From IMG/VR virus record IMGVR_UViG_3300025401_000648: 64,000 nucleotides of DNA. One strand, 5' to 3'. The translations under genes and the position numbers were made by a program. The stretch is from a virus. Lineage: Duplodnaviria > Caudoviricetes. Below are positions 19,566-28,400 of this stretch, one piece after another; the first letter of the stretch is position 1; each line of letters begins with the position of its first letter. Under the pieces are notes generated by a model. The model did not search any database and had not been told where the DNA came from. It worked only from the letters and a program-made list of their open reading frames with translations.

Positions 19566-20006
19566 TTAAATTAAGTCCAAGAGCAATTCTAATTTGGCCT
19601 TGACCACTCGATTGTTGAGACTGTTTTTTACCCCCGAATGCAAGGGTTTGGGCCACGCACTGTAACTACACCAAGCATAGCTAGTATGTTCGTCATTTAG
19701 TACAGGAATAAACTCCTTTTCAACAATCAACACATAGGTATTGTATTGAAAATTATCATCGCTGGACACAAATAATTCTAACGGAACTATTTTTTTTATT
19801 TTAGGGGGTTTGCCCACTTCTTCCAATATTTCTCTATGTAGCGCATCAACAGCAGTGACATCGGTGGGTTCTTTTTTGCCACCAACTAGTCCCCAAGTAC
19901 CAGATGTTTTACCTTGATTTCTTAACAGTAATAGAAACCTTTTGGTGTCCTCAGCAAGGAATAGTCCGCCACTACAAATAATTTGATTTAAAGGATTAAC
20001 CGCCAT
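19566..20006 (-). CDS. NUDIX hydrolase
   Basis: Nudix box GGKKEPTDVTAVDALHREILEEVG. Confidence 0.9.
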   Translation of the reverse strand: MAVNPLNQIICSGGLFLAEDTKRFLLLLRNQGKTSGTWGLVGGKKEPTDVTAVDALHREILEEVGKPPKIKKIVPLELFVSSDDNFQYNTYVLIVEKEFIPVLNDEHTSYAWCSYSAWPKPLHSGVKNSLNNRVVKAKLELLLDLI

Positions 20007-21352
20007 GATGCCTTATCGTATACACCATCGTAACTCTTGCCCCACTCGGTGCCGTTCCACATGTATTGTATACCCGTATAAGCATTAGTTATGTATGTTA
20101 CAGTAGTGCTGGCAGCAGAATTGAATATAACACTCCATGATGATCCATTCCACTGTATAATGTCATTGGCATGAGCAACAAATCCTGACCCATCACTGTT
20201 TAACCATGCTGACGGACCTATCACAGGCACAGAGTGTATATCCTCTAAAATTAGATATCTAGTGCCTGCTACTTTGACACTGGGGTTAAATGTATCTGGA
20301 TTAATAACAGCATCCACTGAACCTCTTCCATCAATAATAGTATTTTCAGGTATGGTGGCTGCATCAAAATTTAATATCATCTTTGTTTCATCTGTTGGAC
20401 TTAGAGTCATGAATGCCACAATTTCTAAACCGTTGGGTTTCTTTAATCTTAGTTGACTCAACCCTGCTGTAAATTTTCCTGGATACAAGCCTAATACTGC
20501 GTTCCAAGAAATTGGCGGCTGATTGGCATTTATATCTAAATTAGTAAATGTGTTGGCCTGCAAAGTAGCAACACCATCTAAAACCAGCAAGTTGTAATCA
20601 GTTGGTGTAACGACCACACTGACATCTGGGGTGCCAAATATTTGAGCACCATAACCTGCTTCTAGTCCAGATATCAATCCCTGTGTATCATCAAATACAT
20701 TGGAAATAATTTGTGTAACAATGTTTAGTTGTGTGACATTGGCTGGGGGTGAAATCCATATAGGGCTTTCAAAAACCAATGATGATATATCAATATCTTG
20801 TTCCAGTCCTTGAGGAATTTGTCTGCTGGACCAATTACCTTGATCAGTCAATGTTAACGTGATAAGACTGGTCCAGTCCACATAGTTATCGGTAGTTTGT
20901 AAATTTAAACTAGGATTGAACACCATGGCAATTTGTTCAATTATTTGAAATTTTTGATCAGTATTACTGGTCCAGATATCTGCGGCAAAAGTTACCTTAT
21001 AGGGACTGGGCATGATTCTTTCCACAGTGTAATTATTACCCTGTGTGTTTAGCAAATTCCCATTGGCATCAATAGCACGTTGTTGCAGATTGACTGTACT
21101 GACAAATGTTGGATCCTGTAGTCTAGTGCGATCATACTTCATATCCTTGATGTAGCAGGCAATCAAAGGTGCGCTGGGCACTGTATTTTCACTGTTCTTT
21201 CTCAGTATTTGACCCACTTGTCTACTTAGGTCGCCGTAACGTACTGGTACCTGTGTAATTTTACCTGTGGCATCTTTATAACTGAAATTACTCATCAGTC
21301 GAATAAATTGAGTGATATATCGGCGCAGTTGGCCATCATAAAAATATTGAAT
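19988..21352 (-). CDS. T4 gp15-like tail terminator/sheath stabiliser (proposed ATT start; ORF track starts at 21295)
   Basis: PSPYK..F..DIWTSNTDQK.QI.EQI...FNP core; reading frame extends upstream as IQYFYDGQLRRYITQFIRL with no ATG/GTG/TTG before an in-frame TAA. Confidence 0.7.
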   Translation of the reverse strand: MQYFYDGQLRRYITQFIRLMSNFSYKDATGKITQVPVRYGDLSRQVGQILRKNSENTVPSAPLIACYIKDMKYDRTRLQDPTFVSTVNLQQRAIDANGNLLNTQGNNYTVERIMPSPYKVTFAADIWTSNTDQKFQIIEQIAMVFNPSLNLQTTDNYVDWTSLITLTLTDQGNWSSRQIPQGLEQDIDISSLVFESPIWISPPANVTQLNIVTQIISNVFDDTQGLISGLEAGYGAQIFGTPDVSVVVTPTDYNLLVLDGVATLQANTFTNLDINANQPPISWNAVLGLYPGKFTAGLSQLRLKKPNGLEIVAFMTLSPTDETKMILNFDAATIPENTIIDGRGSVDAVINPDTFNPSVKVAGTRYLILEDIHSVPVIGPSAWLNSDGSGFVAHANDIIQWNGSSWSVIFNSAASTTVTYITNAYTGIQYMWNGTEWGKSYDGVYDKASWRLIL

Positions 21353-21356
21353 AATA

Positions 21357-21404
21357 TTACAACGGCGTTAAGCCGTAGCCTCCTTTAAATTTATAGATAT
21401 ACAT
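21357..21404 (-). pseudogene. 15-codon mini-ORF MYIYKFKGGYGLTPL, probable collapsed GIY-YIG endonuclease relic
   Basis: ATG 4 nt after the gp14-like stop; MYIYK resembles GIY-YIG N-termini; contains AAAGGAGG and an ACGGC/GCCGT hairpin. Confidence 0.5.
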
Positions 21405-21408
21405 ATTT

Positions 21409-22626
21409 TTAGAGATCCGCTTTAGGTTTTAATACTTTACTCAATGGTTGACGTTGTGGATATGTTAATCCATCATTCAGTGTTATAGTAGCAGTATTAT
21501 TAATGAATCCAGTTTTTTCTGTTAGTCTAACTTGTTGTCCAGCAAACACTGTACCTGGCGCAACATCACTGCTACTGAAATTATTCATGGTCATTCTAAC
21601 ATCTTTTTGCCATTGTATCCAATGTTTACCATCAAATCTATAAAGTACATTTGGCAAATAGTCTGTTCTTAAAAAGAATTGACCTACCACTGCTCCGCCT
21701 GGAAATTCAATACCAGCGCTAAATGGTGCGCCATCAGGAGGTTGAGTACCACCTCCGTTGGGATAAGAAACATATTCAATCTTGCTGGGACTATGTAGCA
21801 CAATACTGGCATCATAGGCAGGTTGTTCAATACTAGCATCTTGATCCATTGTTGATGCGTCGGCAACGTCTAATAGCCCAGCATCTGTAAGAGGTACGAT
21901 GTACAAAGGGGTAGTGTCAAATCCACTTTGTGGCGCATCCAGTGTTGCTTGGGCGATAATTTGATTATTAATATCAACACTTTGTTGATATGTACTCAGT
22001 AGGTCTCGCAATGTGCTGCCGTCTCCATTACCAGCATCTTGATCAAAGATTTGTTTGTATTCTTGACTATCTACTAGAGGTACACATTTAGCACGTAGTA
22101 AGTGCGGGTACCATGTAGGGCTATATCCAGCCGCTGGACGAGTAACGTCTTGAACAACATAAAATCTTTTTAAGGCCACCAACGATTCGTCTAGTCCATA
22201 CTCGTCTTTTAAGTGAGGTAATTCAATGACATCGCCAGGCATAATTTTTCTAGACAGCGCATCTACAGTGCCGCGTAGGTGAAACATGATAAAAATATTA
22301 TCGTTACTTAAAAACATACCAAACTGACTTAGATTAAAATCCAAATCCTGCATGGTATAGATTCCACGGATAACATAAATGTCAGGAGCATAGTTTCTAT
22401 CTCTATTTTCCATTAAAAGCACATCTTGGATACTTAATTCAGGAATAGGATTAGCACTAGTATCTGGAACTGCCGGGGTAGCAGTCCCCTCTGCTGGATT
22501 TACAGGTCCTAGATATTTGTGAACAAATACATCAGTCCCACCAACTTGGAATTCTTCATTGATAATTCTATCAAGGAATCTAAAATCATTGCCCTTTTCG
22601 GGTTTGTATAAACTTAGACGAGGAAT
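21409..22626 (-). CDS. T4 gp14-like neck protein (proposed ATT start; ORF track starts at TTG 22653)
   Basis: PRLSLYKPEKGNDFRFLDR N-terminus, GGTDVFVHKYLGP, DLDFNLSQFG, GDVIELPHL; AAGGAG lies 7 nt before ATT. Confidence 0.7.
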   Translation of the reverse strand: MPRLSLYKPEKGNDFRFLDRIINEEFQVGGTDVFVHKYLGPVNPAEGTATPAVPDTSANPIPELSIQDVLLMENRDRNYAPDIYVIRGIYTMQDLDFNLSQFGMFLSNDNIFIMFHLRGTVDALSRKIMPGDVIELPHLKDEYGLDESLVALKRFYVVQDVTRPAAGYSPTWYPHLLRAKCVPLVDSQEYKQIFDQDAGNGDGSTLRDLLSTYQQSVDINNQIIAQATLDAPQSGFDTTPLYIVPLTDAGLLDVADASTMDQDASIEQPAYDASIVLHSPSKIEYVSYPNGGGTQPPDGAPFSAGIEFPGGAVVGQFFLRTDYLPNVLYRFDGKHWIQWQKDVRMTMNNFSSSDVAPGTVFAGQQVRLTEKTGFINNTATITLNDGLTYPQRQPLSKVLKPKADL

Positions 22627-22769
22627 TTTAATTCTCCTTTGACAACCTTGCAATTATCAATATGATGTTTTTCTGTGTAATCGCTGGTTATTCTGCTCTG
22701 TGCGTTGGCAACAATTGCATAATACCAGCGAGTGTACTTGTTGGTCAAAAATGAATTTAGTATTGGCAT
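22614..22769 (-). pseudogene. 51-aa mini-ORF, internally deleted HNH homing endonuclease relic
   Basis: MPILNSFLTNKYTRWYYAIVANAQSRITSDYTEKHHI|DNCKVVKGELKFLV: typical phage HNH N-terminus joined directly to a DNCK-type C-terminal end; not in the ORF track. Confidence 0.7.
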
Positions 22770-22776
22770 AGTAATG

Positions 22777-22803
22777 TATTTATGGCTAGCACACGGCTAA
22801 ATA
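22777..22803. promoter_or_regulatory. Divergent pair of late promoters (TAAATA on each strand)
   Basis: Minus TAAATA 22777-22782 (7 nt to ATG 22769); plus TAAATA 22798-22803 (5 nt to ATG 22809). Confidence 0.7.
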
Positions 22804-22808
22804 TTATC

Positions 22809-23567
22809 ATGAACGAAAATGAAAACGCCCGCCAACAAGTTATAGATTACATTAAGACTTTCCTAGGTGATGGGATGGTTGATGTAGAACTGGATCCCAA
22901 GCACTATAATGTTGCTATAGATCGAGCTCTTGCCAAATATCGTCAGAGAAGCAGTAATGCTCAAGAAGAAAGTTTTGGATTCCTAACGCTACAGGTTAAT
23001 CAGAATGATTACACCATGCCCAAAGAAGTAACAGAAATTCGACAGCTATTTAGACGTAGTATTGGTAGTAGAAGCGGTGGTGGCGATGGCGGCAGTTTGT
23101 TCGAGCCCTTTAACTTGGCCTATTCCAACACCTATCTATTGGCATCAACCAACATGGGCGGCTTGGCTACTTATTACGCATTTGCTAGTTACCAAAAACA
23201 AGTTGGTAAAATGTTTGGTAGTGATATCAATTTTACCTACAATAGGACCAATAAAGTATTGACTATTATGCAACGTCCGCAGTCTGAAGAAGAAGTACTG
23301 GTTTGGATGTACAACTATCGTCCAGATTTTGACATTTTAGCGGATAATTTTGCTGGACAATGGATCAAGGACTTTGCCCTGGCCAGTTCTAAAATTATAT
23401 TAGGCGAGGCTCGTGAAAAATTTGCCACTATTGCCAGTCCACAAGGCGGTATTCAACTAAACGGCACTGCTCTTAAAAATGAAGGCAAAGCTGAATTAGA
23501 AGTTTTAGAGCAAGATCTAATTAACTACAAAGAAGGCGGAACACCGTTGACATGGGTAACCGGCTAA
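22809..23567 (+). CDS. T4 gp13-like neck protein
   Basis: LGDGMVDVELDPKHY, W.KDFALA..K.ILGEAREKF...PQGG..LNG; start moved to the ATG just after TAAATA. Confidence 0.8.
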   Translation: MNENENARQQVIDYIKTFLGDGMVDVELDPKHYNVAIDRALAKYRQRSSNAQEESFGFLTLQVNQNDYTMPKEVTEIRQLFRRSIGSRSGGGDGGSLFEPFNLAYSNTYLLASTNMGGLATYYAFASYQKQVGKMFGSDINFTYNRTNKVLTIMQRPQSEEEVLVWMYNYRPDFDILADNFAGQWIKDFALASSKIILGEAREKFATIASPQGGIQLNGTALKNEGKAELEVLEQDLINYKEGGTPLTWVTG

Positions 23568-23576
23568 TGCTATACT
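23547..23576 (+). promoter_or_regulatory. sigma70-type promoter (TTGACA-N18-TATACT, extended -10)
   Basis: TTGACA 23547-23552; TGcTATACT 23568-23576; ATG 6 nt later with no SD. Confidence 0.6.
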
Positions 23577-23582
23577 AGTTCA

Positions 23583-24323
23583 ATGAAACCTATTGAACTA
23601 TTTTACCATGTTTTTATTCCCGCTGATACTAGATACACCATGTGGAATTGGTGGATTGATCAGCAACTACAGCTAATCCAGCAAAGCAAATTACACACCA
23701 TAGCCCGTAAGGTCAGTATGGCGGTGACCATGCCACAGCATTATGGAGAAATTTCTCCTGGTACTGGCATTCCATTTAGATTGAACCGCAATAAATCTTC
23801 AGCGGTGACATTTATTTCAAAACTACGAGAATACGTCAGTGTTCGATATCCGTGGGTTGAAATTATTGACTTTAGAGATACCGGTGAAGTCAATATATTC
23901 GAAGGGCAGACGCTCCATCTACTATGGCTTAAATCTCAAACAGATGATTTTGATGTATTATACCTACATACCAAGGGTGTGGTCAGTGCTACTCCACAAG
24001 TGGCCTGCTGGCGAGAAATATTAAATCACTACTGTGTAACTGAGTGGCCCACTTGTATCAAAATGTTAGAAAATTGTGATCTTGTGGGAATTAAGGATCT
24101 GCGCTCTGATGAAAATAATACAGTTAGCGGTAATTTTTGGTGGTCCAAGGCAAGTCATATACGCACACTACCAGATCCACTAGCAGGTAACGATTCTGGC
24201 AGATATTATTACGAACACTGGATCAAATTAACAGATCCGTCAACACAGTTCATTGTAGATACTGAAACCGATCATCACGATGATTATTGTTTCCTGGAAA
24301 ATTTACTGAAAAAAAATCCTTGA
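23583..24323 (+). CDS. Hypothetical protein, possibly glycosyltransferase-related
   Basis: VLYLHTKGV, WREILNHY, SGNFWWSKASHI motifs resemble a family seen in large-virus glycosylation regions; function inferred only. Confidence 0.45.
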   Translation: MKPIELFYHVFIPADTRYTMWNWWIDQQLQLIQQSKLHTIARKVSMAVTMPQHYGEISPGTGIPFRLNRNKSSAVTFISKLREYVSVRYPWVEIIDFRDTGEVNIFEGQTLHLLWLKSQTDDFDVLYLHTKGVVSATPQVACWREILNHYCVTEWPTCIKMLENCDLVGIKDLRSDENNTVSGNFWWSKASHIRTLPDPLAGNDSGRYYYEHWIKLTDPSTQFIVDTETDHHDDYCFLENLLKKNP

Positions 24324-24373
24324 CTGGTTTAACATTTCTGTAATAAAATAAATTATTAACTGGGGGATACTAT

Positions 24374-25081
24374 ATGATCATTGGTGTGTGTGGTTTTATT
24401 GGGTCAGGTAAAGATACTATTGCTGACTATTTGACAAATTTTCATGGTTTTCGAAGAGAAAGTTTTGCCGGTAGTTTAAAGGACGCAGTAGCACAAGTGT
24501 TTGGTTGGGATCGAACTATGTTAGAAGGTCGAACTAATTCTGCCCGTGAATGGCGAGAACAAGTGGACACTTGGTGGGCTGAACGGTTAGACATGCCACA
24601 CCTAACCCCACGTTGGGTATTACAATATTGGGGCACAGAAGTTTGTCGCAATGGTTTTCATGATGATATTTGGATTTCTGCTCTGGAAAACAAACTACGC
24701 AACAGTAAGGACGATGTTGTTATCAGTGATTGTCGATTCCCTAACGAAATTAAATCAATCCGTGATGCGGGCGGTATTGTTATTCGGGTAAAGCGTGGCC
24801 CAGAGCCTGACTGGTATCGAGATGCCGCAGACATGAATGCCGGAGATCACTGTATAAATTGGGCACTTGCTTCAAATCGAATGAGACAGTTGGGCATACA
24901 TGCGTCAGAGACTGCTTGGGTAGGTACCAAATTTGATCATGTTTTAGAAAATGACAGCAGTATAGACAATTTATATGCTCAGGTTAGATCATTGATTAAA
25001 AGTCCGGAGTTAGAGCCCCTTGACGCCAGCGAACGCCCTCTTTATGTAGGACTCGTTGACAATTGGCACACACCGTCTTAA
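24374..25081 (+). CDS. Deoxynucleoside monophosphate kinase (T4 gp1-like)
   Basis: GFIGSGKDT P-loop, TPRWVLQYWGTE, VISDCRFPNE, HASE. Confidence 0.9.
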   Translation: MIIGVCGFIGSGKDTIADYLTNFHGFRRESFAGSLKDAVAQVFGWDRTMLEGRTNSAREWREQVDTWWAERLDMPHLTPRWVLQYWGTEVCRNGFHDDIWISALENKLRNSKDDVVISDCRFPNEIKSIRDAGGIVIRVKRGPEPDWYRDAADMNAGDHCINWALASNRMRQLGIHASETAWVGTKFDHVLENDSSIDNLYAQVRSLIKSPELEPLDASERPLYVGLVDNWHTPS

Positions 25082-25331
25082 GATTCAAGACGCTGTTGTT
25101 CATTAAATTTCCATCAATATGGAACACATCAAACTGTTCCATATGTTTGCTACTGAATCCACATTTATCACAGGCATTCTTCTTTTTATAGCCTGCTAGA
25201 GCCCATAACGGGTTTCCTTGTTCACGGCTTCGGCTACAGTGATCACACTTAGACCTATAATAAGGTCTTCCTTCTTTATAGTAGTTGACTGCTACTGGTC
25301 TTTGTCGACATATCTTACATAAATTTCTCAT
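24996..25331 (-). CDS. Zn-finger HNH endonuclease
   Basis: CxxC pairs, VFHIDGNLMNN...NLKTVCANC. Confidence 0.8.
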   Translation of the reverse strand: MRNLCKICRQRPVAVNYYKEGRPYYRSKCDHCSRSREQGNPLWALAGYKKKNACDKCGFSSKHMEQFDVFHIDGNLMNNSVLNLKTVCANCQRVLHKEGVRWRQGALTPDF

Positions 25332-25431
25332 ACCCGCCCTTTTCGTGCCCTTTTGTCATGGTATTTACCCTGGTTTTTTTCTAATATACAGCTAAATAAA
25401 ACAAAGTAATCCAATTAAGGAGATTTAAAAC

Positions 25432-28400
25432 ATGGCTACAGTATTAGGTTCCCCAGGCGTAAGCGTAACGGTAGTAGACGAGAGTTTCTACACACCGGCA
25501 GCCCCTGGCAGCACTCCAGTTATTTTCGTTGCTACCGCGGCGAACAAACAAAACGCCAGCGCAACAGGCACAGCACAGGGTACTTTAAGTTCCAATGCTG
25601 GTAACGTGTATGTGCTATCAAGTCAACGCAACTTAACCGATACATTTGGTACACCGCGTTTTTACACAGATGCGTCAAGCAATCCTATTAACGGCGACGA
25701 ATTAAACGAATATGGATTACAAGCGGCATACAGCTTATTAGGTATTAGTTCAAAAGCCTATGTTGTTCGTGCTGATATTGACCTAGGACAACTTGTTCCT
25801 ACAACTACTGCTCCAGAAGGTACGCCAGTAGCAGGCACTTACTGGGTGAATCCAGTAACTAGCTCATTTGGTATTAACCAATGGAGTAGTTCAACACAGA
25901 GTTTTAGTGTAATAACTCCATTAATCATTGACAATGATAATTTTGACGCAACTACTACAGTAGCAGGTCTTCCAGCTGATAGTTTTGGCAAACCAGGCGA
26001 CTATGCTATGATTGTTACATCAGACAACGGCGCAACAATGACTCCTGATGCTTTATATTACAAGACATCAGCAAACAGCAATGCTTGGGTAGAAGTAGAA
26101 TATGGTTTTGATGGTGGAAAACAATTAGTAATTGGACCACACACAAGTTACCCAGATTTTACCACATCAACTGGATCAAGCGCAGATACTGGTAGTGTAT
26201 GGATTAAAACAACTACTCCTGGTATGGGCGCAAATTGGGTGGTAAAATATTACAATGGTGCTACATCTAGTTGGACTAGTGTAACAGCCCCATTATACAA
26301 CAGCAACCTACAAGCTCTATATAATTATGATTTTGCCGGTGGCGGATCAAACATCGCTGTAGGTACAACCTATGTTGAAACTGATCCTGATCATTATGGA
26401 ATAACAACTGCTACAACAGCGGTTGCTGAATTCAAAGTTAAGAGATACACAAGTAATGGTCCAACTTCTATTGTTAGTCCAGCAACTACCTTCAAGAGCA
26501 CATTAACTAACAAAACTTTTGTTATCAGAGAAACATTACAAGGTTCAGCACAGTGGGCCAATACAGCAACTATCACTGTTCCGTCAGATTTTGTAAACAC
26601 ATTGGCGGCTAACATTGCTACAGCAATTAACGTATCTGGTATGACTAATGTCAGTGCTAGTTACAATACACTTACAAACAAATTAACTATTACCCACGCA
26701 TTGGGTGGTGATTTTGAATTGTATGACTACGCAGGTACTCCGTTGGCCGATGTTGGATTTAGTGCTTACAGCTACGATTCAGCAACAATGACAGCTACTG
26801 GAACTCCTAATTTGTACACAGCTCCTATGGCTGATTTAACCACAGTATCAGGAAATCCTCCTTATACATTTATTGCCAGTAACTGGGCTCCATTGGTTTA
26901 CGAAGCATCCGCTGTAGCACCAAGTACTGCTCCAGCAGATGGTACACTATGGTTTGACAGCAGTATCAGTTCAGTTGATATTCTATACAACAACGGCAGT
27001 GCTTGGGTTGGTTATTTAAACGCTTTCCCAAGTACAGATCCAAACGGTCCAATTGTGTCAGCACTAGCTCCAACAACACAGAGCAATGGTAACGCATTGG
27101 TAACTGGTGATATTTGGATCAGTACAGCAGTCATTGACAATTATGGTCAAGTAATTTATGTTTACAACAGCGTAACTGGTGGCTGGGTATTACAAGATAC
27201 CACCGACCATCATACCCCAAATGGTTGGGTTTACGCAGATGCTCGCTGGACATCAGGAGTTGATACTAATTATCAACCAGCTACAATTTCAGCACTATTA
27301 AACAGCAACTATGTTGATAGCGACTGTGTAAGTCCATTACTATATCCAAAGGGTACACGTTTGTATAACCTACGTTGGAGTGGTAACAATGTTAAGAAAT
27401 ACATGATGAACTATATCACCGGAGTTGAAGGTGATGTGGGTGATCGTTGGGTTTCTGTTAGCCCTAATAATGCGCTTGGTCAAGGCCAATTTGGTCGTTT
27501 AGCACAACGCAGTATTATTGTTGAATCACTAAAAGCAACAATTGATACAAACACAGCAATCCGTGATACTGAAACATTGACATTTAACTTGATTGCCTGC
27601 CCAGGATATCCTGAAGTAGTACAAAACCTAGTTAACTATAATACAGATGTTGGTAACACAGCATTTGTCATTGGTGATACACCATTCCGTTTACCGGCAG
27701 ATTCTAACTCATTGAATAACTGGGGTAGCAACGCTGCACTTGCCGCAGATAACGGTGATCAAGGTGCGGTAACATATGATGACTATTTGGCATTCTTCTA
27801 TCCAAGTGGGTTGACCAATGACAATACTGGTAACAAAATTGTTGTTCCGCCAAGTCACATGATGTTAAGCACAATCGTTAACAGTGATGCCGTAAGCTAT
27901 GAGTGGTTTGCTCCAGCTGGTTTAAATCGCGGTGGAATTATCAATGCTACTTCAGTAGGCTACATTGATAGTACTACAGGCGAATTCCAAACAGTAAGCC
28001 TATATGAAAGCCTACGTGATATAATGGCCAGTGTTAAAGTTAATCCAATCGCAACACTAAAAGGTGCTGGCATTGTTAACATGGGTCAATACACACGTTC
28101 AAAGGTTTCTAGCGCATTAGATCGTATCAACGTAGCTCGCTTAGTAGGTTACCTACGTAGACAGTTAAGCATATTATCTAAACCATATTTGTTTGAGCCA
28201 AATGACAATCAAACACGTGGTGAAGTTAAAAATGCTGTTGAAAGTTTGCTATTAGAATTGGTTGGTCAACGTGCTTTGAATGACTTCATTGTAGTATGTG
28301 ATACAAGTAACAACACACCTGCTACTATTGATAGAAATGAATTGCATGTAGACATTGCTATTGAACCAGTTAAAGCAGTTGAATTCATTTACATACCGCT

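Follow-up and report, generated by a model that had tools for sequence, protein, structure and literature searches.

Free-standing homing endonuclease genes of the GIY-YIG (seg) and HNH (mob) families spread in T4-like phages by 'intronless homing', outside introns and inteins (PMC2988022). Such genes are intergenic or run into the end of the preceding gene, while the gene that follows retains a start of its own (PMC2988022). The start of mobE, for instance, overlaps the stop of nrdA as UAAUGA (PMC2988022), so that coupling of a nuclease to an upstream gene is already known. Here we describe two cassettes, for which the seg and mob genes are the parent kind, in a stretch of 64,000 nucleotides (nt) of DNA from an uncultured freshwater jumbo myophage (IMG/VR record IMGVR_UViG_3300025401_000648; 'the window' below means this whole stretch). 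Our reading is that two predicted homing endonuclease cassettes took over both start signals of two adjacent virion genes and decayed to scars, leaving host genes that start at AUU, and we give it a probability of about 75%.

The two genes follow each other on the minus strand (Table 1), and a head-tail adaptor-like gene diverges from them on the plus strand. A protein-based scan of IMG/VR yielded 589 related stretches; the best 80 serve as loci here (L numbers below), and 79 of them cover the start of the virion gene. Both ATT codons in Table 1 were also covered, with zero differences, by contigs from four public freshwater runs, possibly from one sampling campaign, and the alleles of the window are no assembly error.

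At the start of the virion gene (site 1), the empty alleles of relatives have a simple layout, in which a TAAATA box precedes ATG-PRLSLYKPEKG at a distance of 5-8 nt in 73 relatives. The same box and spacing are found in the window, where the position of the virion gene's ATG is occupied by the ATG of a 51-codon open reading frame (ORF); the box would be the native virion gene promoter, now driving this ORF. The 51-amino-acid (aa) product matched phrog_655 (E 2e-7, over 31 residues) and gave no match in a Pfam search. Its origin is seen in L004 and L005, whose virion protein is 99.75% identical to that of the window and which carry an intact 247-aa ORF from the same ATG, ending KGELKFLV-stop across the ATT. 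The L004 protein scored 36.6 bits for NUMOD3 (cut-off 20.4) and a borderline 21.3 bits for HNH (cut-off 21.4). Compared with it, the 51-codon ORF lacks residues 38-233 through an in-frame deletion of 196 codons (junction between 22659 and 22658), with 100% identity over residues 1-37 and 94% over the last 16 (232-247). What is kept, residues 1-37 and the last 14 with the break directly after EKHHI, is without the HNH catalytic core and the DNA-binding modules, and the ORF is a relic and not a nuclease.

Other alleles of site 1 fill in the series. L006, with a virion protein 94% identical, is empty: its promoter stretch is identical to that of the window and runs as TAAATA-cattact-ATG straight into codon 2 (ATG CCA CGC). 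Full-length HNH+NUMOD3 genes of 236-253 aa, reaching from the promoter-proximal ATG to across the ATT, are present in L004, L188, L195 and L197, and the intact ORFs besides that of L004 measure 236 aa (L188), 246 aa (L195/L196) and 253 aa (L197). Independent scars hold ORFs of 37 codons (L199), 25 codons (L007) and 21 codons (L190), whereas L203 and L136 carry tiny ORFs in other frames, and L107 and L093 have no upstream ORF at all, consisting of the TAAATA box, a leader of ~25 nt, a Shine-Dalgarno (SD) sequence and ATT. A DNA scan for the cassette tail gave 26 stretches, ~20 of them at the virion gene, and GGAGAAYTAAA-ATT is kept in ~20 cassette alleles. Occupied alleles are also recoded in codons 2-5, with CCT CGN YTA AGT in place of the mostly CCA AGA/CGC ... 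of empty alleles, which supplies the TAA stop of the nuclease. As a separate observation, a 213-aa HNH gene lies just upstream of the virion gene promoter in L029 (L029:513-1196) and L091, with its stop inside the TATAAATA box; the host ATG is retained there, in what would be a second, conventional occupation of the same intergenic site.

At the junction between the virion gene and the gp15-like gene (site 2), the TAA of the former at 21411-21409 is followed by 4 nt and then by an ATG at 21404-21402, a stop-start coupled position from which a 15-codon ORF begins. In most relatives the empty junction reads TAATG, TAAATG or TAAAATG, a classic stop-start coupling, and L004 and L006 are empty here, with TAAAATG-CAA. 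Many relatives carry at this junction intact GIY-YIG ORFs of 169-194 aa, which start at the coupled ATG with M[YHV]IYKFTH...YIGQT; 13 of the 13 full-length ORFs tested passed the Pfam cut-off for GIY-YIG (PF01541, 22.6 bits), with scores of 24-37 bits. They end EA[ST]V-stop, encoded by GGAGGCTTCGGTTTAA, a segment that is SD, one arm of a short hairpin and, in the hairpin loop, TAA at once. The loop TAA of the window cassette is thus the stop codon of the intact endonuclease, and the 15-codon ORF, too short for scoring of its own, has MYIYKF and tail-derived codons only and misses the GIY-YIG catalytic domain.

The site-2 tail is highly specific in its placement: the motif GGAGGC..CGGYTTAAYRCCG was found in 104 IMG/VR contigs, and in 104 of 104 the gp15 N-terminus follows immediately. 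The conserved Phe-Tyr-Asp codons come 19 nt after the hairpin in nearly all cassettes and 20-22 nt after it in a few. Of 59 distinct copies, 58 have U-A, U-G or C-G as the inner hairpin pair, with outer pairs often mismatched; covariation is limited, as most stem positions are invariant. A second hairpin type with ATG retained occurs in L033, and one scar type with ATG in L007. Behind the hairpin of the window, the second of two ATT codons is probably the start of the gp15-like gene; in empty-site gp15 alleles its place is that of the Met, and with an in-frame TAA (21370-21368) six codons upstream no canonical start is left. In one clade (L077:2877-3131, L078:1518-1772) the same junction holds an 84-aa ORF of another kind, hydrophobic, rich in Cys and His and not an endonuclease, which is coupled as TAATG at its start and by ATG to gp15 at its end.

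Table 1. Features of the two gene starts in the window
Feature	Position	Strand	Details
T4-late-type TAAATA box	22777..22782	-	7-nt spacer to ATG 22769-22767
HNH homing endonuclease relic, 51 codons	22614..22769	-	ATG 22769-22767; stop 22616-22614; out of frame with virion gene
Shine-Dalgarno AAAGGAG	22634..22640	-	inside the relic's last codons; 7 nt before ATT
ATT at homology-defined virion gene start	22624..22626	-	aligned with Met of every empty-site relative; in frame
Virion structural protein gene (phrog_11591)	21409..22626	-	405 codons counted from ATT
GIY-YIG homing endonuclease relic, 15 codons	21357..21404	-	first 6 codons (MYIYKF) and 3' tail; stop 21359-21357
Site-2 initiation cassette	21362..21386	-	AAAGGAGG 21386-21379, then putative hairpin ACGGC-TTAAC-GCCGT 21376-21362
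ATT ATT	21350..21355	-	in frame with gp15-like gene
gp15-like tail sheath stabiliser / tail completion gene	19988..21352	-	PF16724 E 4e-20; phrog_11196; counted from second ATT

A first-pass annotation, made from the letters of the window, had proposed one design for the two adjacent virion genes (an ATG, an out-of-frame mini-ORF, an SD and an in-frame ATT), with relics of two different nuclease families. All of the listed elements are present on the minus strand, and the two families are recognised, one through the intact L004 HNH enzyme of which the 51-codon ORF is a deleted form, the other through the MYIYKF start shared with intact GIY-YIG enzymes. The kind of gene that it proposed to look for, with a homology-defined N-terminus lacking ATG, GTG and TTG, is borne out by the alignments, in which the Met of the homologues in Pseudomonas phage PA5oct, Agrobacterium phage Atu_ph07 and Sinorhizobium phage Phosso falls on the window ATT in both genes. 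The full-length alleles on which the proposal depended exist at both sites, as do empty sites with a native ATG where the relic ORF now starts (L006, L004).

Both cassettes appear to be mobile. On a tree of 104 virion-gene sequences, occupancy of site 1 changed state at least 11 times and that of site 2 at least 16 times, and near-identical host genes were found in different states: L024 (empty) and L025 (cassette); L006 (both sites empty), L004 (intact HNH gene as the only insert) and the window (two scars); L059 (empty), L048 (intact GIY-YIG gene) and L034 (scar). This series of empty, full and scarred alleles is observed directly, and so is the specificity for the sites. In the examined loci all GIY-YIG copies lie at site 2 and HNH copies are found, besides site 1, just upstream of its promoter. 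We propose that the cassettes stem from two free-standing homing endonuclease genes, an HNH and a GIY-YIG one, each of which invaded one of the two adjacent late virion genes at its 5' boundary. The ORF of each cassette sits on the native start signal of the host gene, a presumably near-leaderless TAAATA-N7-ATG at site 1 and a coupled TAA..ATG at site 2. The cassette's 3' end brings a strong SD, a fixed spacer (at site 2 including the short hairpin), a non-AUG codon and recoded first codons, which would act as a replacement initiation region. The nuclease bodies have gone from both cassettes of the window and the two ends are left; these would persist because the former start lies at the 5' end and the one ribosome-binding site still available to the host gene at the 3' end. 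SD-directed initiation at AUU would then produce the virion proteins, and ribosomes terminating on the adjoining relic ORFs may help. As regards the native signal, TAAATA-N5-8-ATG was found 14 times versus 6.5 expected, with 0 of 100 shuffles reaching 14, and transcripts from the TAAATA boxes would have leaders of 0-3 nt.

The cassettes would be free-standing elements, neither introns nor inteins. An Rfam search of window positions 21200-22900 with E up to 1 gave no match and no intron, and no family was found in four loci bearing homing endonuclease genes; the nuclease ORFs are out of frame with the host gene or separated from it by a stop, and scars of 38-143 nt leave no room for a ribozyme. 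These results bear on the notion that the native ATG is still joined to codon 2 by recoding or splicing, be it a bypass of the T4 gene 60 type, a frameshift, read-through of a stop or a small intron. Matching Pro codons for take-off and landing are in fact offered at site 1 (ATG CCA ... ATT CCT), the nuclease ORF of some site-2 alleles (L042, L060) is in frame with gp15 across a single TAA, and a stop in a hairpin together with an SD are features also listed for the gene 60 element (bioRxiv 2022.08.31.505936). The gaps to be crossed at site 1, however, measure 143-731 nt, far above the known 50 nt, frames differ among alleles, extra in-frame stops occur (L026, L116), site 2 has no matching take-off and landing codons, no Rfam intron was found, 38-nt scars cannot be ribozymes, and fusion with an entire nuclease is implausible. 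We therefore consider such joining extremely improbable.

With respect to the dynamics, each of the checks proposed in the annotation turned out in its favour. Gain and collapse can be followed on the phylogeny as scattered occupancy, the route is splicing-free as far as the Rfam searches above go, and the tail that carries the host ribosome-binding site is not lost, every scar having kept it. Its 'general' way into essential genes stands as recurrence in many relatives, with the generality confined to these two sites so far. That the element inserted right after the ATG holds insofar as the relic ORF starts at the native ATG position, but the insertion point itself is ambiguous by 3-6 nt (ATG CCA ... 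ATT CCT at site 1, ATG ... ATT at site 2). Insertion may have taken place behind the ATG or, equally, in front of it, in which case the element brought its own ATG and the native one was disarmed; the functional outcome would be the same.

We then considered at which codon the host genes start. In the protein-based sample, in which ~8% of site-1 and ~25% of site-2 alleles are occupied, the site-1 start codon is ATG in 73 of 79, ATT in 5 of 79 and GTG in 1 of 79. Over all examined loci, ATG is found in 139 of 139 empty site-1 alleles; among the 25 occupied ones, whose number is enriched because further loci were gathered partly with cassette patterns, ATT occurs 21 times, ATA once, GTG 2 to 3 times and ATG not at all. 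A site-1 cassette tail with NTG replacing ATT was sought and not found at the virion gene. The ~117 locus copies of site 2, among which 66 sequences are distinct, have ATT, ATC or ATA at the Met position in 86 cases (~74%), ATG in 1 (L144) and no canonical or near-cognate in-frame start in 30 (~26%). In-frame stops lie just upstream of both ATT sites. A scan of the window for other genes with an SD and an Ile start returned the virion gene only.

An ORF finder gives TTG 22653 for the virion gene and ATG 21295 for gp15 as the first canonical in-frame starts, and if these were used the alignment of the ATT codons with Met would be a coincidence. We regard this as very unlikely. TTG 22653 belongs to sequence derived from the nuclease, lacks an SD and does not recur in other cassette alleles. 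ATG 21295 encodes a Met that is a conserved internal residue in empty alleles too, and starting there would cost the protein 19 residues whose conservation extends to T4 gp15 and which members of its family also share. The 19 codons in question bear the signature of coding constraint, as the entropy at third versus second positions was 25.8 versus 7.3 in 50 Ile-type alleles and 24.4 versus 4.5 in 14 start-less alleles, and no stops were found in 64 distinct alleles. This signature indicates that these upstream codons of gp15 are translated.

Most likely, the host proteins start at AUU by ordinary SD-directed initiation, for which the spacing at site 1 (7 nt) is canonical. At site 2 the distance from SD to ATT is 26 nt, and initiation would need the hairpin to shorten it, by analogy with T4 genes 25 and 38. 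Alternatively, the AUU might be reached mainly by termination and reinitiation, with the scar as an obligatory coupling device that leads ribosomes from the native ATG through the relic ORF. Several features fit this picture: both relic ORFs of the window end beside the ATT (at site 1, 10 nt past it; at site 2, 1 nt short of it), the natural frame and stop survived four independent site-1 deletions (51, 37, 25 and 21 codons), in most site-2 scars an ORF still reaches from the coupled ATG to the natural stop (TAA) in the hairpin loop, and empty site-2 alleles are themselves TAATG or TAAAATG couplings. Moreover, within window positions 22624-22640 (minus strand), the AGGAG of the SD could pair with UUCCU, formed by the last two AUU bases and the CCU codon, and the pairing would be weaker with an ATG, or with the CCA found in empty alleles; although its predicted energy is small, it could mask the SD until translation of the relic ORF unwinds it. 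Yet ORF-less scars exist at both sites (L107 and L093; L091 at site 2), which makes coupling to the relic ORFs not obligatory and SD-directed initiation at AUU the simpler reading. In addition, L203 and L136 have their tiny ORFs in other frames, retention of the frame at site 1 (4 of 6 versus 2 expected) is not significant, and the poor translation usual for intact endonuclease ORFs would starve an essential gene. With scars that have no ORF or another frame, we dropped in-frame retention as proof of coupling, and we hold obligatory coupling to be possible but rather doubtful. The term 'AUU re-initiation cassettes' of the first-pass annotation is accordingly apt for decayed cassettes with an SD and ATT, and not for an obligatory re-initiation.

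The near-absence of ATG in cassettes is an observation, for which selection for a weak start matching an originally weak leaderless or coupled initiation, immunity to the nuclease, and co-inheritance are candidate causes. We infer that selection maintains the weak start, for the sake of dosage or of immunity. The first-pass annotation had suggested that weak AUU initiation or translational coupling may reset the stoichiometry of the neck proteins. At site 2, the start codon's third base is free among T, C and A, with G only once, which argues for selection against ATG. If immunity were the reason, the nuclease would recognise a site that includes the G of the native ATG, and an allele that regained ATG would be cut and re-converted. 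The start region is targeted by both nuclease families, the first codons are recoded in occupied site-1 alleles and the variable third base at site 2 agrees with this view. Against it, the insertion itself already splits the site, GTG, which likewise ends in G, is used in L137 and L032, and the recoding is explained in part by the need for a nuclease stop codon, so that immunity seems to us an unlikely though tenable motive.

Besides the enrichment of occupied alleles, the following points weigh against our reading. AUU as the codon used for both proteins is inferred by exclusion, and instead of selection, the retention of ATT could reflect descent from a single cassette that homing has spread; the start codon has also drifted in scars (ATA in L136; GTG in L137 and L032). 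The site-2 hairpin is short, with a folding energy no better than that of shuffled controls (z -0.3 to -1.8). Finally, about a quarter of the site-2 cassettes ('TKS type', e.g. L034 and L116) have no near-cognate in-frame start, and initiation at site 2 may not be simple AUU initiation.

Start-less junctions of this type were seen in L034, L035, L087, L091, L113, L114, L116, L119, L134, L138 and L142, and the class includes intact, presumably active endonuclease genes (L114, L142, L119). The junctions read ...ACT AAA TCG GAY... or AGT ACA TCG..., in many cases preceded at a distance of three codons by an in-frame stop (L116), and the codons downstream still evolve as coding sequence. Their one constant feature is an invariant ATCG word, which ends where the Ile codon ends in other cassettes and whose ATC is one base out of frame; another third base in the ATNG word was sought in the start-less alleles, and only ATCG was seen. 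Usually, a two-codon minicistron xTG-NNN-TAA lies just upstream. One conceivable solution is that the initiator tRNA reads AU(C)G by skipping one base or shifts +1 at initiation, which would be a natural four-base or frame-shifted start codon on a mobile element. Read as one start step, AU(C)G would yield M-D-Y-F-Y-D, identical to the nearest empty alleles (L059, L045); we nevertheless rate this idea as improbable. A prfB-like +1 shift at the minicistron would fit most start-less alleles, but L084 and L122 do not have that stop. Other candidates were rejected: a hop as in gene 60 finds no matching take-off and landing codons. A phage initiator-like tRNA that reads UCG or AUY was sought among the 41 tRNA genes of a 221-kb relative, of which 0 have the anticodon CGA; one of its two Ile(GAU) tRNAs, inspected by eye only, is paired at 1:72, unlike an initiator. 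This tRNA cluster (L245, which is G002:C1:5000-19000 on the 221-kb contig of L154) also includes three tRNAs with anticodon CAU, one of them with a U1-U72 mismatch, and an odd 90-nt Ile(UAU).

As for the genes themselves, near-identical DNA was sought among deposited phage genomes and none was found; the public runs that match the window are labelled freshwater or lake metagenome, and no RNA dataset is among those listed. The nearest named relatives, Atu_ph07, Phosso and PA5oct, share 33-37% protein identity in the gene in question and the order structural protein to gp15. The PA5oct homologue of the virion protein is annotated as detected in particles by electrospray ionisation tandem mass spectrometry (ESI-MS/MS), and the N-terminal residues P2, R3, L4, S5, P9 and K11 are invariant. 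The virion gene has the position of a gp14-like neck gene, a tentative label taken from gene order only. A profile search of PDB sequences with the virion protein gave no match, and an AlphaFold model from 19 sequences was poor (mean predicted local distance difference test score, pLDDT, 52).

Some further observations concern the surroundings. Another TAAATA box precedes the ATG at 22809 by 5 nt (MNENENARQ...; window 22798-22811, plus strand), and the adaptor gene of relatives begins at the matching position with MTENENARQ, so that the ORF finder's adaptor start at 22782 is probably wrong. The two late boxes, of the adaptor and the virion gene, are thus back to back, 15 nt apart. The window differs from the otherwise near-identical L004 phage by 15-19% of nucleotides in 23000-24100 (the 3' half of the adaptor gene and the next gene) and by 0% in 22500-22900 and 24100-25900, a mosaic divergence that indicates recent recombination. 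At 24996-25331 (minus strand) a 111-aa ORF with weak HNH matches (phrog_2255, E 1e-8; Pfam below cut-off) points away from the tail sheath gene and may be another small or decayed nuclease gene.

If our reading is correct, homing endonucleases have a niche besides introns, inteins and intergenic gaps, namely the start codon of a conserved essential gene, which would give the element free expression and a target unable to drift. The invasion would work as a ratchet: once the native start is taken, the cassette tail is the host gene's only initiation region, and decay can strip the nuclease while the scar stays permanently. Such scars would explain essential phage genes that seem to have no start codon or are truncated or mis-started by gene callers. 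The allele series, with empty, intact and independently scarred forms and with ATT, ATC, ATA, GTG, ATG or no start, would provide natural variants for the study of non-AUG initiation, split ribosome-binding sites and translational coupling.

We found no published description of a nuclease that takes the host start signal and supplies a replacement SD and non-AUG start, or of such scars. A strong SD combined with a weak near-cognate start, as at the AUU of infC and other non-canonical starts that IF3 discriminates against, gives low, IF3-sensitive initiation; the window shares this combination, and here the codon arrives with a mobile element. GTC is a further non-canonical start (PMC5472188). 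In the split translation initiation regions of T4 genes 38 and 25, the distance between SD and start shrinks from 22 to 5 nt and from 27 to 11 nt (PMC3014915). As at site 2, the SD is too far from the start and an intervening hairpin could shorten the distance, but the T4 genes have AUG and resident features, whereas site 2 has a mobile cassette, Ile codons or no recognisable start, and a short and putative hairpin.

Among mobile elements, the seg and mob genes are closest, with the same two enzyme families in T4-related phages, a similar presence/absence polymorphism between close relatives and expression from late promoters or by coupling (PMC2988022). Unlike them, the window cassettes would have the nuclease ORF on the host gene's own start signal and bring a substitute SD and a non-AUG start. 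In the T4 mobA/gene 60 bypass and the splitting of nrdA by mobE in the Aeromonas phage Aeh1, a mobile HNH cassette likewise sits in an essential gene and carries its own translational device, and the host gene works without splicing (bioRxiv 2022.08.31.505936; PMC2988022). Those two act inside the coding region, through a 50-nt ribosomal hop or a gene split into two polypeptides, whereas the device of the window cassettes would be a replacement initiation region at the extreme 5' end that leaves the protein unchanged except for residue 1. Fungal mitochondrial mORFs (Allomyces atp6; Glomus atp6, atp9, cox2 and nad3) also combine an endonuclease ORF with a recoded host gene end, with which it moves, creating a hybrid gene and displacing the native end (PMC3630166). 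The mORFs, however, replace the C-terminus and are in phase with the host gene, while the cassettes described here would replace the 5' end, with the endonuclease using the displaced native start.

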